Assembly: GCF_039525985.1 (NCBI RefSeq)
Contig: NZ_BAAAII010000013.1
Location: 36,574 to 60,573, forward strand
DNA: 24,000 nt
Direction of reading: 5' to 3'
Origin: Tsukamurella strandjordii
Lineage (GTDB): Bacteria > Actinomycetota > Actinomycetes > Mycobacteriales > Mycobacteriaceae
The position numbers and the translations under genes are program-made. A model generated the notes under the pieces. That model did not search any database, had not been told where the DNA came from, and saw nothing but the letters and a program-made list of their open reading frames with translations. This document shows positions 19,559 to 24,000 of the stretch, in pieces (within the stretch, counting starts at the first letter, position 1; every line of letters begins with the position of its first letter).

Positions 19559-19663
19559 CTATTCGAGCCGCTTCTCCTCTTCCCGCTCCAGGCGGTCGCG
19601 CTCCTCCTGGCGGCGCTTCTCCTCGTGCTCGATGGCCTCTTCGCGGGCGTTCTTGTTGCTCAT
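19559..19663 (-). CDS. 34-codon micro-ORF encoding a hyper-charged E/R/K peptide, ATGA-coupled to the upstream AAA+ gene
   Basis: [34 protein letters not shown]. Its ATG (19663-19661) overlaps the TGA (19662-19660) of the Clp-like gene. Codon third positions are almost all G/C, as in neighbouring genes. It appears in the track only as the tail of shadow ORF 19559..20170. Confidence 0.45.
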   Translation of the reverse strand: MSNKNAREEAIEHEEKRRQEERDRLEREEEKRLE

Positions 19664-22260
19664 GCCTTCTCCTGTTCGTCGGTCGTCTCGGTGGCCTTGT
19701 CGTCGGACGAGGCGTCCGCGGCCTTGTCGTCGGTGGTCTTGTCGTCGGAAGCCGGGAGGCTGCCCTCGGTCACGGTTCCGTCCTTGCCCACCTCGACCAC
19801 CGAGATCACCAGGCCGTCGTCGTCGGCGTCCACGCGCACGGTGTCGCCGGGCACGATCTCGCCCTTGAGCAGCATCGACGAGAGCCGGTTGTCGAGTTCC
19901 TTCTGCACGGTGCGGCGCAGCGGGCGGGCACCGAACTGGGGCTGGAAGCCCTCGTCGGCCAGCCAGTCCTCGGCCTTCTCGGTGACGTCCAGCTCCACGT
20001 CCTGGCCGCGCAGCAGGCCGCGGGTGCTCTCCAGGATCAGCTCGACGATGTTGCGGATCTGCTGCTTGTCGAGGCGGTGGAAGATCACCGTGTCGTCGAT
20101 GCGGTTGAGGAACTCGGGCCGGAAGTGGGCGTGCAGCCGCTCCTTGACCTTCGGGACCACCGACTCCCAATCGTCCTCGGGCGCTTCGAGGATCAGATCG
20201 GCGCCGATGTTGCTGGTGAGGATCACGATGGTGTTCTTGAAGTCCACCGTGCGGCCCTGGGCGTCGGTCACGCGGCCGTCGTCGAGCAGCTGCAGCAGGA
20301 TGTTGAAGACATCCGGGTGGGCCTTCTCGATCTCGTCGAACAGGATCACCGAGTAGGGCTGGCGGCGCACCTTGTCGGTGAGCTGGCCGGCCTCCTCGTA
20401 GCCCACGTAGCCGGGAGGCGCGCCCACCAGTCGCGAGACGGTGTGCTTCTCCTGGAACTCGCTCATATCGAACCGGATCAGCCGGTCCTCGTCGCCGAAG
20501 ACGGTGGCCGCCAGGGCCTTCGCGAGCTCGGTCTTGCCGACACCGGTGGGGCCGAGGAACAGGAACGAGCCGATGGGCCGGCTCGGGTCCTTGAGCCCGG
20601 CGCGCGCCCGGCGCACGGCCTCGGAGACCGCGAGCACGGCCTCGTCCTGGCCCACGACGCGGGCGTGCAGATCGTCCTCCAGGCGGAGCAGCTTCTCCTT
20701 CTCCTCGGAGGTCAGATCGGCCACCGGGATACCGGTGCGCCGCGAGACCACCTCGGCGATGTCGGTCACCGTCACATCCGGGCCGGACGGCTCACCGTCG
20801 GGGGAGATGTTCTTGAGCCGCTGCTCGGCCTCCGCGATCTTGACCTTGAGCTCGTCCGCGGTCTTGTAGTCCTCCGATTCGACGGCGCTGTCCTTCTCCC
20901 GGTTCAGCCGCGCCAGCTCGTCCTCGACGGTGCGGGTGCCCTGGTCGGAGGTCTTGGTGCGCAGCCGGACCCGGGCGCCGGCCTGGTCGACGAGGTCGAT
21001 CGCCTTATCCGGCATGAACCGGTCGGTGATGTAGCGGTCCGAGAGTTCGGCGGCGGCGATCAGGGCGTCGTCGTCGTAGTGCACCTGGTGGTGCTCCTCG
21101 TAGACGTCGATCAGGCCGCGCAGGATCTCGATGGTGTCCTCGACGGTCGGCTCGCTCACCATCACCGGCTGGAACCGGCGTTCCAGGGCGGCGTCCTTCT
21201 CGATGTACTTGCGGTACTCGTCGATGGTGGTGGCGCCGATCGCGTGCAGCTCGCCGCGGGCCAGCGCCGGCTTGAGCATGTTGCCCGCGTCCATGGAGCC
21301 CTCGCCCCCGCCGCCCGCACCGATGATGGTGTGCAACTCGTCGATGAACACCACCAGCTCGTCGGAGTGCTCGCGCACCTCGTCGAGCACCTTGGTCAGG
21401 CGCTCCTCGAACTCGCCGCGGTACTTGCTGCCCGCCACCATGGAGCTCACGTCGAGCGCGATCACGCGGCGCCCGGCGAGCGTCTTGGGCACGTCGTCGT
21501 TGACGATCCGCTGCGCCAGACCCTCCACGATGGCGGTCTTGCCGACGCCGGGGTCGCCGATCAGCACGGGGTTGTTCTTGCGGCGGCGGGAGAGGATCTC
21601 GATGGTCTGCTCGATCTCCTCGGCGCGGCCGACCACGGGATCGACCTTGCCGGCCCGCGCCTCGGCGGTCAGATCGCGGCCGTACTCGTCGAGGGTGGGC
21701 GTGCTGCTCGGGCCCTGCGCCGCCTGCGCCTGCTGCGCGGTCTTGCCGGGCTTGCCCGATTTGCCGGGCACGGCCTGGCCGGAGGACAGGCCGCCGCCCG
21801 CGAGGGTCTGCGCGGCCACGGTGTCCGGATTGTCGGCGATGCCGATGAGGATGTGCTCGGGGCCCACGTAGGACTGGCCGGACTGGGCCGCCCGCTGCTG
21901 GGCCACGCGCAGCGCGCGCCGCGAGGCCGGGCTGAGCGACGGTGCGCCGTCGGCCCCGTCGGGGCTCGCGCTGGCCTTCGCCGCAGTTTCCATCGCGGAG
22001 GCGACCCGATCGGGATCGAGGCCCACCCGCACGATGATCTCGCGCGTCGGCTCGTTCATCGCGGCCGCGTACAGCAGGTGCTCGGGCGTGATCTCGCTGT
22101 TGCCCCAATCGGCCGCGGCCACCTGCGCCTCGACGAGCAGAGTCTTCGCCTGGTCGTTGAGGAGGCGGTTCAGGTCGACCCGCTGCACGGCGGGCCGGCC
22201 CACCGAGTTCCCGAAGAACCGCTGGAAGATGTCATCGAAAACGCCGTCGAAATCACTCAT
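19660..22260 (-). CDS. Atypical two-ring Clp/Hsp100 AAA+ ATPase (ClpC-length middle domain, ClpB-like D2 without a visible ClpP-docking loop, N-terminal extension, acidic DDK-repeat tail)
   Basis: Two Clp_N repeats ([20 protein letters not shown]). D1 has GDPGVGKT and VVFIDELH. D2 has GPTGVGKT and [10 protein letters not shown], with sensor GARPLRR. The start is ATG 22260 (weak GGAAAG SD) or ATG 22275 (track start, no SD). Confidence 0.92.
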
Positions 22261-22315
22261 TTCACTGCTTTCCATTCATCGGTCGGTGGGACGGGTGGAA
22301 CGGTGGTGCACAAGT

Positions 22316-23113
22316 TCAGGCGGTGAGCGGTACTGCGGCCTCGGGGGTGTAGGCGAGGAAGGTGAAGGTCTCCTGCAGGTACAACTCTACCGCGTCGGCG
22401 GTGTGCGAGAGGTAGCCGATCTCCACATCGGTGCCCAGCCGCAGGTCGAAATCGCCACCGCGCGTGGTGAGCACGAAGGCGCCGTCGATCGCGGGTGCCC
22501 AGATGATGTCGCCGTCGACGAGCCGGTTGAGGTGCTCGCGCACCGGATAGCCGTGATCGGAGGTCTCGCTCACGCGGGTGTACACATCGGCGGAGAGCAG
22601 CACGGAGTACGGGCCGTCCACACCGGCGAGCCGCAGATCGGACAGCGCCTGGGAGACGACGTCGGGGATGTCGCGCGGATCGTCGGGCAGCTTGAGGTCG
22701 CCGCCGGCGGCGGTGTTGCGGATGCCGGGGATCGATGCGGCCGGATAGCCCTCGAAGATCGCCCGGTCCTCGGCGTAGGCGAGGCTGCGTGCCGCGTCCT
22801 TGACCGGATCCCAATCGGCGTCCTGTGCGCCGCGCTCCACCGAGTCGATGGCCTTGCGGCTCAGCGTGAACGGCACGCGCAGGCGCACCAGGGGGCGGCT
22901 GTCGCGCAGGTGGGCCTGCACGCCCTCGGCGGGACCGCCCACCTCGAGCAGGTGGCCGGTGCCGATCGCGCTGGCACCGGGGCCGAGCGGTTCGCCGAGG
23001 TCCACCACGCGGCGGCCGGCGATGTTGCGTTTGAAGGTGCGCGTCGCTTCGGTCTCGATCTCCGACCACGCCGCGGCGGTCACGGGGGCGAGTTCGCGGT
23101 ACAGGTTGTTCAT
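22316..23113 (-). CDS. Family-1 encapsulin shell protein (Cfp29/Linocin_M18-like)
   Basis: 265 aa from internal ATG 23113-23111. MNNLYRELAPVT...LRLAGVDGPYSVLLSADVYTRVSETSDHGYPVREHLNRLVDGDIIWAPAIDGAFVLTTRGGDFDL is near-identical in long stretches to M. tuberculosis Rv0798c as I recall it. The upstream 230 codons of track ORF 22316..23803 overlap DyP out of frame. Confidence 0.95.
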   Translation of the reverse strand: MNNLYRELAPVTAAAWSEIETEATRTFKRNIAGRRVVDLGEPLGPGASAIGTGHLLEVGGPAEGVQAHLRDSRPLVRLRVPFTLSRKAIDSVERGAQDADWDPVKDAARSLAYAEDRAIFEGYPAASIPGIRNTAAGGDLKLPDDPRDIPDVVSQALSDLRLAGVDGPYSVLLSADVYTRVSETSDHGYPVREHLNRLVDGDIIWAPAIDGAFVLTTRGGDFDLRLGTDVEIGYLSHTADAVELYLQETFTFLAYTPEAAVPLTA

Positions 23114-24000
23114 CGATCGCTTCCTTTCAGACTGCCGATCCGCAGCGAGCCGTCCGCGGCGTCGGCGGTGGGAGCGGGGGACCCCTCCGCCTCCTCCGGT
23201 GCCGCGGGCGGATCGTCCAGGAAATCGGCGGGCGGGGTGAAGAACAGGCATCCGGTGTGCGCGGTGGAGAAGTCGAGCACGCGGTCGGTGTTGCCGGGCG
23301 GATCGCCCAGGAACATGTTGCGCAGCATGCGTTCGGTGATCCCGGGGTCCCGGGAGTAGCCGATGAAGTAGGTGCCGAACTCGCCGCTGCCCACCTGCCC
23401 GAAGGGCATGTTCTGGCGCACGATCTTCAGTTCGTTGCCCTCGTCGTCGGTGATCACGTTGAGCGCGATGTGCGCGTCGGCGGGTTTGACGTCGTCGTCC
23501 ATCTCGATGTCCTCGAGCTTGGACCGGCCGATCACCTTCTCCTGCTCCTCGACGGTGAGCGCGCGCCACGCGGTCATATCGTGCAGGTACTTCTGGACGT
23601 GGACGTAGCTGCCGCCCGCGAAGTGCGGGTCCTCGTCGCCCACCGTCGTGGCCGCGACGGCCACCTCGCCCGACGGGTTCTCCGTGCCGTCCACGAAGCC
23701 CAGCAGGTCGCGGTTGTCGAAGAACCGGAAGCCGTGCACCTCGTCGACCACGGTGATCGCACCGTCGAAGGCGGCCACGATCCGTGACGACAGTTCGAAG
23801 CACATGTCGAGCGATTCGGCCTTGATGTGCAGCAGCAGATCGCCCGGTGTCGACGGTGCGCGGTGGCGCGGACCGTCGAGCTCGACGAACGGGTGCAGAC
23901 CCCGGGGCTTCGGGCCCGCGAAGAGGCGGTCCCAGGCGTCCGAGCCGATGGAGGTGATGAGGGCCAGGCCCTTCTCCGGGTAGCGGAAGGAGACCGATCG
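23110..24000 (-). CDS. DyP-type haem peroxidase, encapsulin cargo (N-terminus beyond the window edge)
   Basis: GFVDGTENP motif, ...AHIALN..., FGTYFIGY. The C-terminal tail ...DGSLRIGSLKGSDR matches the encapsulin cargo-loading peptide consensus. The frame stays open from 23805 to 24000 (hand-translated ...YPEKGLALITSIGSDAWDRLF...GDLLLHIKAESLDMCFE). Its stop TGA overlaps the encapsulin ATG. Confidence 0.93.
   Translation of the reverse strand, partial: RSVSFRYPEKGLALITSIGSDAWDRLFAGPKPRGLHPFVELDGPRHRAPSTPGDLLLHIKAESLDMCFELSSRIVAAFDGAITVVDEVHGFRFFDNRDLLGFVDGTENPSGEVAVAATTVGDEDPHFAGGSYVHVQKYLHDMTAWRALTVEEQEKVIGRSKLEDIEMDDDVKPADAHIALNVITDDEGNELKIVRQNMPFGQVGSGEFGTYFIGYSRDPGITERMLRNMFLGDPPGNTDRVLDFSTAHTGCLFFTPPADFLDDPPAAPEEAEGSPAPTADAADGSLRIGSLKGSDR

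Follow-up and report, generated by a model that had tools for sequence, protein, structure and literature searches.

A 24,000-nucleotide (nt) stretch of DNA from Tsukamurella strandjordii (~70% G+C), referred to here as the window, carries on its minus strand, in this order, part of a gene for a DyP-type peroxidase, a family-1 encapsulin gene, a short spacer, a gene for a two-ring Hsp100/Clp AAA+ ATPase and a micro-open reading frame (micro-ORF) of 34 amino acids. We found that the adjacency of the ATPase gene to the DyP-encapsulin pair was confined to the genus Tsukamurella. The cluster is probably a genus-specific stress operon, from which a peroxidase nanocompartment and a ClpP-independent disaggregase would be co-expressed, each acting independently of the other. 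By its sequence, the ATPase belongs to an uncharacterized Hsp100 subfamily of Actinomycetota that is distinct from ClpB and ClpC and is modestly novel.

The P0001 locus, which is 99% identical, stood in for an exact match to the window ATPase. DyP and encapsulin genes were present directly upstream of the ATPase gene in every Tsukamurella locus examined, namely the window, two assemblies of T. paurometabola (L081/L082), Tsukamurella sp. 8F (L086), T. tyrosinosolvens (L090), a second T. strandjordii strain (L183), to which the window DNA is 99% identical, and one metagenomic contig (L110) that is clearly Tsukamurella, its ATPase being 87% identical and its formate dehydrogenase (FDH) 97% identical. 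Outside the genus, all nine orthologs (70-75% identity) were located at unrelated loci and adjoined no encapsulin gene; they came from Rhodococcus triatomae, two Nocardia, Prescottella (R. hoagii), Gordonia jinhuaensis, Mycolicibacterium mageritense, M. brisbanense, M. frederiksbergense and Skermania. No encapsulin gene was found near four relatives at 59-61% identity, and neither encapsulin nor DyP was detected within the flanks of ~75 ClpB/ClpC control loci from many phyla. These control loci were obtained by a contig search with the ortholog alignment, in which universal patterns retrieved mostly ClpB and ClpC and just five subfamily relatives.

In the reverse test, 80 metagenomic encapsulin loci (63-77% identical to the encapsulin of the window) were examined, 72 of which had a DyP match and 58 of which had at least 1 kb of downstream sequence. 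No Hsp100 gene was present in the flanks of 79 of them, and the sole match was on the Tsukamurella-like contig. Apart from that contig, no FDH, FUSC or Hsp20 gene was found near the metagenomic DyP-encapsulin loci, and seven of the ten plasmid loci examined contained no Hsp100 gene. A recurrent third gene behind the metagenomic encapsulins was considered and rejected, as clustering of the first downstream ORFs yielded spurious GC-rich ORFs only. Since the adjacency is confined to Tsukamurella, it looks like one of neighboring stress genes and not like a new encapsulin component. The initial annotation of the window had proposed a possible extended encapsulin locus, in which the unfoldase would be functionally tied to the nanocompartment, and had suggested a gene-neighborhood analysis as the check. 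Run here, that check found the adjacency limited to the genus and the orthologs at unrelated loci elsewhere, the very outcome that the annotation had named as a refutation; the proposal is thus not supported. The alternative it had offered, that two stress genes adjoin by coincidence, is more convincing, and a few independent re-occurrences suggest that stress genes tend to cluster.

The DyP-encapsulin pair of the window is an ordinary two-gene family-1 system. The DyP matched Pfam Dyp_perox_N and Dyp_perox_C as well as TIGR01413 (267 bits), and it was 99.7% identical to the full-length DyP of the second T. strandjordii strain. Its C terminus reads ...ADGSLRIGSLKGSDR up to the stop codon, and the ending ...GSLRIGSLKGSDR is a C-terminal encapsulin targeting peptide (GSLRIGSLKG), which we take to be of the SxGSLxIGSLKG type. 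The TGA of the DyP gene and the ATG of the encapsulin gene overlap as ATGA. The shell protein matched NF041155 encap_f1 with 339.4 bits (cutoff, 100; E value, 1e-101) and Linocin_M18 with an E value of 8.5e-98. A 495-codon ORF (22316-23803, minus strand), which runs from the DyP interior in another frame into the encapsulin frame, was discarded as a high-G+C artifact, the true encapsulin start being the ATG at 23113.

No targeting-peptide-like sequence was found at the C termini of the ATPase and the micro-ORF product. The ATPase was also rejected as encapsulin cargo on the grounds that it has no targeting peptide and that its ~570-kDa hexamer would be implausible for a small DyP-type shell. 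In a survey of encapsulins, DyP formed the most abundant family-1 cargo class (1,505 systems), and the accessory genes comprised short-chain oxidoreductases, cupins, DUF1345, DUF5709, 6-GPD and DAPDC, with no ATPase among them (PMC8346489). Our literature search turned up no Hsp100 partner of encapsulins, which agrees with the remark in the initial annotation that it was aware of none for family 1. Because of the missing targeting peptide, the absence of the adjacency from 79 of the 80 metagenomic and seven of the ten plasmid loci, and the absence of an ATPase from that survey, neither the ATPase nor the micro-ORF product appears to be an extra cargo or a conserved accessory component of the family-1 system.

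We examined loci elsewhere in which DyP-encapsulin and Hsp100 genes occur together; this sample is small and not random. Seven Klebsiella and E. coli plasmids carried genes for FDH, DyP, encapsulin, rpoH (on the opposite strand), MscS and a full-length ClpG-like ATPase, the last located 2.4 kb downstream, and many more plasmids carried only the left part, FDH-DyP-encapsulin-rpoH. An NAD-dependent FDH gene was also present upstream of DyP in Tsukamurella, directly upstream and on the same strand in sp. 8F; that of T. strandjordii lies in two frames and appears frameshifted, possibly as a pseudogene or through a sequencing error. The four proteins shared by Tsukamurella and the plasmids are only 50-67% identical, so the block was not transferred recently. 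On the Rhodococcus opacus plasmid pLPS8 (L094:8870-10333), a 3′ ClpB-type fragment containing the second half of the long M-domain and D2 lies directly behind the encapsulin gene. This fragment is missing from the gene table of pLPS8 and is therefore presumably a pseudogene.

In M. mageritense, genes for DyP, an internally deleted encapsulin, a homolog of the micro-ORF product, Ni-superoxide dismutase, Hsp20 and the ATPase ortholog are located within 9 kb. The DyP/encapsulin/micro-ORF group is on the strand opposite to the Hsp20-ATPase pair and precedes that pair by 4.5-6 kb. The Hsp20 gene was directly upstream of the ATPase ortholog in two Mycolicibacterium species (L085:9445-9894 and L180:9445-9894), and in both of these loci it was immediately preceded by genes for Ni-superoxide dismutase, its peptidase and a FUSC-family protein. 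Other DyP-encapsulin loci adjoined UvrA/UvrB, CbpA/CbpM, Hsp20 or DksA-like genes. We read these arrangements as a tendency of DyP-encapsulin modules to reside among general stress genes or in composite stress islands, and do not take them to show a specific mechanism that links unfoldase and shell. The M. mageritense ATPase ortholog is also followed, at a distance of about 1.7 kb, by a gene for a SMODS/AGS_C nucleotidyltransferase, of a type resembling the cyclic oligonucleotide-based antiphage signaling system (CBASS) of defense (L085:14223-15572).

The same loci bear on a dedicated partnership, in which the ATPase, perhaps together with the micro-ORF product, would act on the nanocompartment: it might unfold or hand over DyP for loading, remove cargo that has been damaged, or take apart or repair shells hit by oxidation or heat. 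We consider such a partnership very unlikely. The tight same-strand trio is contiguous in all Tsukamurella loci despite varying flanks, as a partnership would have it, but none of the nine orthologs outside the genus adjoins an encapsulin gene, and Hsp100 genes are missing from nearly all of the metagenomic loci and most of the plasmid loci. Enterobacterial plasmids independently pair FDH-DyP-encapsulin with a ClpG-like gene, in seven full-length copies; however, the opposite-strand rpoH gene and the channel gene separate the two in that island. The ClpB fragment right behind the encapsulin gene of R. opacus pLPS8 also fits, yet it is presumably a pseudogene remnant. The grouping of DyP, truncated encapsulin, micro-ORF homolog and ATPase ortholog within 9 kb in M. 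mageritense remains in favor; on the other side stand the ends of the ATPase and the micro-ORF product, which do not resemble targeting peptides, and the described DyP encapsulins, which assemble and load without such a factor (PMC8346489).

Returning to the stress operon that we favor, we examined whether its layout is compatible with a single transcript. Reading of the sequence confirmed the four minus-strand ORFs, the two ATGA overlaps and the gap of 40-55 nt between the encapsulin and ATPase genes that had been described in the initial annotation, which proved accurate in all details that were checked. The first ATG of the ATPase ORF is at 22275, and the start kept in all orthologs is M6 at 22260, with GGAAAG just before it; counted from this conserved start, the spacer is therefore 55 nt long, and it is 40 nt long if counted to 22275. 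Scanning of the spacer revealed no sigma-70-like promoter and no terminator-like site, and its folding was no better than that of shuffled sequence (z = +0.37), in line with the earlier remark that no stem-loop or U-tract was visible there. The spacers in five Tsukamurella sequences ranged from 25 nt (in sp. 8F) to 55 nt, and the purine-rich ribosome-binding site (RBS) alone was conserved.

Downstream of the micro-ORF, there is a strong GC-rich hairpin. A 101-nt fold that includes it had an energy of -52.6 kcal/mol (z = -2.89), and none of 200 shuffled sequences was as stable; its inner stem consists of eight perfect base pairs. The stop codons of the micro-ORF and of the convergent dienelactone hydrolase (DLH) gene are just 18 nt apart, and the hairpin may be a bidirectional terminator that has no U-tract. 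Co-transcription is plausible because of the 25- to 55-nt spacers, the lack of a terminator or stable structure in the gap and the strong hairpin after the micro-ORF, and the anatomy of a tight same-strand cluster, plausibly one transcript, had thus been recognized correctly.

Alternatively, the ATPase gene might be transcribed on its own, from a promoter located in the last part of the encapsulin gene, under separate regulation, for example by heat, so that the two units merely abut by coincidence. This explanation is unlikely, although it deserves serious consideration. Every ortholog outside Tsukamurella is stand-alone with its own upstream region, and the window ATPase has its own RBS. A -10 candidate of the TANNNT type, TAGAGT (22384-22389), is present in the 3′ end of the encapsulin gene, but such hexamers are common by chance, and the consensus scans gave no recognizable promoter. 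Separate transcription is also difficult to reconcile with a spacer that is down to 25 nt in sp. 8F, where the RBS alone is conserved, and with a strong hairpin that follows the micro-ORF and has no counterpart after the encapsulin gene.

The ATPase was next analyzed by domain searches, alignment and AlphaFold2 modeling. The Walker and pore-loop motifs were intact in both ATPase rings. The protein begins with an aromatic motif, FDDIFxRFFG, in which R14, F15 and F16 were invariant and F8, D9, D10, F12 and G17 were at least 90% conserved among 72 sequences. Variants of this motif were present in relatives from Streptomyces and Nonomuraea, and it aligned to the N1-N2 linker (FFNGFG...DDIFG) of the ClpG-like plasmid protein; no match to it was found among PDB sequences. 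It may resemble the G/F "DIF" region of DnaJ. Residues 1-38 contain no Cys or His. In the AlphaFold2 model, which had a mean predicted local distance difference test (pLDDT) score of 68 and a predicted template modeling (pTM) score of 0.35, residues 5-16 formed a short helix (residues 1-29 had a pLDDT of <50), a linker of ~50 residues (158-208) between Clp_N and D1 appeared disordered, and the M-domain formed a single helical hairpin at 440-485 (helices 440-461 and 465-485). The initial annotation had called the ATPase atypical, and the N-terminal extension and short M-domain that it pointed out are real and conserved in the orthologs.

Between PDKAID and the second Walker A motif, the window ATPase measured 156 residues (153-157 in the subfamily), versus ~160 in ClpC/ClpG and 218-227 in ClpB (25 loci). 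The D2 segment from TSNIG to FRPEFLNR comprised 39 residues without a GF. In ClpC loci, this segment had 48-58 residues and contained LGF or IGF, and in ClpB it had 37-40. The closest solved structures by sequence were those of ClpC and ClpC1 (832 bits), which were collinear with the ATPase over residues 34-817, and in that search of the PDB, ClpL (6lsy) came a long way behind both ClpC and ClpB. The best match to D2 was Thermus thermophilus ClpB, which aligned almost without gaps, whereas ClpC chains needed nine extra residues. Because the M-domain and the collinearity are of the ClpC type and D2 is of the ClpB type without a docking loop, the ATPase joins a ClpC-like front to a ClpB-like back, as does the stand-alone disaggregase ClpG.

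These comparisons also bear on whether the ATPase could be a ClpC-type unfoldase that feeds ClpP as a component of a protease, a role that is highly improbable. Over the full length, the PDB entries that match it best are ClpC and ClpC1, its M-domain and Clp_N are ClpC-like, and the sources annotate it as "ATP-dependent Clp protease ATP-binding subunit"; however, the docking-loop segment is 9-19 residues shorter than that of ClpC and has no GF, D2 is closest to ClpB, and the ATPase falls outside the ClpC clade. A ClpP-coupled protease role was rejected on the missing docking loop. Separately, in a 59%-identical relative from a Mycobacteriales metagenome-assembled genome (L001:3523-5985), the sequence APGFGTGGG occupies the place of the ClpP-docking loop, so that some members of the broader actinobacterial clade may be coupled to ClpP.

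Family models and a tree were used to place the ATPase. Its highest NCBIfam score, 1017.9 bits, was obtained with the ClpB model TIGR03346 and was below the cutoff of 1232.1, and its score with NF008118 was 836.6 against a cutoff of 1417. With the ClpG and ClpK models, which are narrow "exception" models, it scored 914.7 and 919.5 bits, respectively, against a cutoff of 1900, and it was also under the curated cutoff of ClpA. In a neighbor-joining tree with ClpB, ClpC and ClpG from the fetched loci, the actinobacterial clade received 100% bootstrap support and was the sister of ClpG in 57% of the bootstrap replicates. Its grouping with ClpG is suggestive, not firm.

The ATPase is most likely a ClpP-independent disaggregase/unfoldase, in which, we infer, the aromatic N terminus and Clp_N contact substrates. 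ClpG and ClpL have no ClpP motif and bind aggregates by avidity through hydrophobic/aromatic N-terminal elements (PMC10641755, PMC11006417), and for the element of ClpL, the role of a "sticky tentacle" that catches aggregates has been suggested (PMC11006417). Like ClpG or ClpL, the ATPase would work as a hexameric threading motor, and its flexible aromatic N terminus and Clp_N would target it to misfolded or aggregated proteins. In Tsukamurella, this general-purpose Hsp100 gene and a small, translationally coupled ORF are now located directly behind the DyP-encapsulin pair. The ATPase gene would then be read through from the DyP-encapsulin promoter, with the transcript ending at the hairpin after the micro-ORF, and oxidative-stress and protein-damage defenses would be expressed together. 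Under this model, the ATPase would not be specific for encapsulin or its cargo, and the juxtaposition would represent a lineage-specific operon fusion of stress genes.

Several points weigh against this model. The last part of the encapsulin gene may contain an internal promoter. The upstream regions of 17 loci were scanned for operators of HspR (HspR-associated inverted repeat, HAIR), HrcA (controlling inverted repeat of chaperone expression, CIRCE) and ClgR-like type and for sigma-H-type promoters, using consensus sequences. These scans gave no convincing hit, and neither a heat-shock operator nor a sigma-H promoter was detected ahead of any ortholog gene. In every Tsukamurella locus examined, the trio was contiguous while the flanking genes on both sides changed, and this contiguity, together with the recurrence of Hsp100 genes near DyP-encapsulin genes in two unrelated plasmid lineages and in M. 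mageritense, mildly exceeds pure chance. The putative disaggregase activity is deduced from architecture only. The zinc-coordinating N1 domain of ClpG mediates aggregate binding (PMC10641755); this domain, the source of ClpG autonomy, is absent here, and the ATPase might therefore depend on another protein, for example DnaK or Hsp20. A more far-reaching joint claim would be that the recurrences counted in Tsukamurella, the enterobacterial plasmid island, the R. opacus plasmid remnant and M. mageritense reflect a real partnership, in which a ClpP-independent unfoldase maintains, unloads or recycles nanocompartments damaged by oxidation, and that the ATPase represents a third class of stand-alone disaggregases, targeted by an FDDIFxRFFG "tentacle" in place of the zinc N1 domain of ClpG or the N-terminal domain of ClpL. 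Taken as a whole, this claim is a long shot.

The micro-ORF probably encodes a real small protein. It exactly matched an annotated T. strandjordii hypothetical protein and was 100% conserved in the second strain; its product was 79% identical in T. paurometabola, where a hand count gave about as many synonymous as nonsynonymous codon changes, and 73% identical and of equal length in M. mageritense, where it does not adjoin the ATPase gene. An HMMER scan detected just two relatives among 1.84 billion representatives, and no match to Pfam or NCBIfam was found. No evidence ties the micro-ORF to encapsulin. In other Tsukamurella, a different, unrelated acidic ORF of 51-56 amino acids (...AETPDEAAAEA..DLDDDGE..) overlaps the ATPase stop codon and is translationally coupled; it is missing from the window, and T. 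paurometabola has both this ORF and the micro-ORF homolog.

The cluster belongs to a variable island that separates rplY-pth from prs-glmU as an insertion, and the core region around it (metS, tatD, rpfB-like, ksgA, ispE and RF3) is otherwise conserved. Adjoining metS, two tandem paralogous DUF7373 genes, each with both the N- and C-terminal domains, are present on the minus strand (2297-3451 and 3546-4709). The coordinates of the features are listed in the table.

Table. Features of the T. strandjordii window and of related loci (positions without a locus identifier refer to the window)
Feature	Position	Strand	Remarks
DyP-type peroxidase	23110..24000	-	3′ 296 codons; 5′ end beyond the window; stop codon at 23110-23112
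Family-1 encapsulin shell protein	22316..23113	-	265 amino acids; NF041155 encap_f1, Linocin_M18
Spacer between encapsulin and ATPase genes	22261..22315	-	55 nt, C-rich; RBS GGAAAG is the only conserved part
Two-ring Hsp100/Clp AAA+ ATPase	19660..22260	-	866 amino acids from the conserved start; Clp_N, AAA, AAA_lid_9, AAA_2, ClpB_D2-small (Pfam)
N-terminal aromatic motif FDDIFxRFFG	22210..22260	-	Residues 1-17; subfamily signature
Clp_N double-repeat N-domain	21796..22173	-	Residues ~30-155; Pfam Clp_N in two stretches; AlphaFold2 pLDDT 81-92
Short single coiled-coil M-domain	20800..20952	-	Residues ~437-487; ClpC/ClpG length
D2 segment TSNIG...FRPEFLNR	20101..20217	-	Residues 682-720; ClpB length, without the ClpP-docking (L/I/V)GF loop
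Acidic, variable C-terminal tail	19663..19788	-	Residues 825-866; unalignable among orthologs; pLDDT 30-38, appears disordered
Micro-ORF	19559..19663	-	34 amino acids, charged (E/R/K-rich); ATG overlaps the ATPase stop codon as ATGA
Strong GC-rich hairpin after micro-ORF	19491..19537	-	Candidate transcript end, at the convergent junction with the DLH gene
Dienelactone hydrolase (DLH)	18653..19540	+	Convergent with the micro-ORF
FDH upstream of DyP	L086:6924-8105, L090:3357-4535, L183:5529-6696		
Acidic ORF of 51-56 amino acids	L081:12666-12827, L090:10384-10539, L086:12489-12659		
DyP and deleted encapsulin of M. mageritense	L085:3232-5488		Encapsulin residues ~113-218 missing
Plasmid stress island, example	L093:17690-25921		K. 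pneumoniae plasmid NZ_CP092398

Knowing that the adjacency stops at a single genus saves bench work on a supposed "encapsulin chaperone." What deserves experiments is the ATPase subfamily, which is widespread and apparently unstudied in Mycobacteriales, Streptomyces and relatives, joins ClpC-like and ClpB-like features with a conserved aromatic N-terminal motif, and could not dock to ClpP through the known loop. If its members are autonomous disaggregases, the ClpG/ClpL concept would be extended to Actinobacteria, with a bearing on the heat, desiccation and disinfectant tolerance of opportunistic pathogens such as Tsukamurella, Nocardia, Rhodococcus equi and rapidly growing mycobacteria. On plasmids, DyP-encapsulin genes have repeatedly gathered with those for formate dehydrogenase, rpoH, Hsp20 and Hsp100, a hint that these nanocompartments travel within composite stress-tolerance islands.

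Compared with known systems, the DyP-encapsulin pair resembles the family-1 operons of M. tuberculosis, M. smegmatis, R. jostii and B. linens, in which the same kind of targeted DyP gene is followed by an overlapping shell gene. What sets it apart from the described operons is the presence, only in Tsukamurella, of a same-strand Hsp100 gene and micro-ORF behind it.

Among the Hsp100 proteins, ClpB has the D2 and small domain closest to those of the window ATPase, and neither protein has a ClpP loop, but the M-domain of ClpB is about twice as long and its alignment with the ATPase breaks into two stretches. ClpB docks DnaK through the second half of its long M-domain, and since the M-domain of the window ATPase is about half the length of that of ClpB, the DnaK-docking half is missing. 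ClpC and ClpC1 of Firmicutes and Actinobacteria share the domain order, the N-domain and the M-domain length of the window ATPase; they differ in possessing a ClpP-docking loop, whereas the window ATPase has the aromatic N-terminal motif and the disordered linker and falls into a separate clade. ClpL, a stand-alone disaggregase of Gram-positive bacteria, likewise has no ClpP motif, and its flexible, aromatic-rich N-terminal element would be analogous to the N terminus of the window ATPase, which is modeled by AlphaFold2 with low confidence; no sequence relationship between the two N termini was detected. ClpL has an N-terminal domain of its own and no Clp_N, which is present in the window ATPase.

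ClpG and ClpK, found in Pseudomonas, Klebsiella and E. coli on the transmissible locus for protein quality control (TLPQC) and locus of heat resistance (LHR) islands, resemble the window ATPase in their two AAA+ rings, an N2 domain of the Clp_N type and a short M-domain; a ClpP loop is likewise missing from them, and their C-terminal extension varies. The NCBIfam alignments run end to end over ATPase residues 6-862 (ClpK) and 12-818 (ClpG), and the ClpG-like plasmid protein, which carries a zinc N1 domain of the CxxC type, is 49% identical to the window ATPase over the full length. They differ from it in their zinc-binding N1 domain, the alignments beginning at position 58 of ClpG and position 79 of ClpK, and the D2 segment of ClpG is six residues longer. 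The window ATPase, in turn, is chromosomal in Mycobacteriales and not part of a mobile heat-resistance island. The core of the TLPQC heat-resistance island is shsp20-clpG (PMC7984374), which is the same holdase-disaggregase pairing as that of the Hsp20 gene and the ATPase ortholog in Mycolicibacterium.

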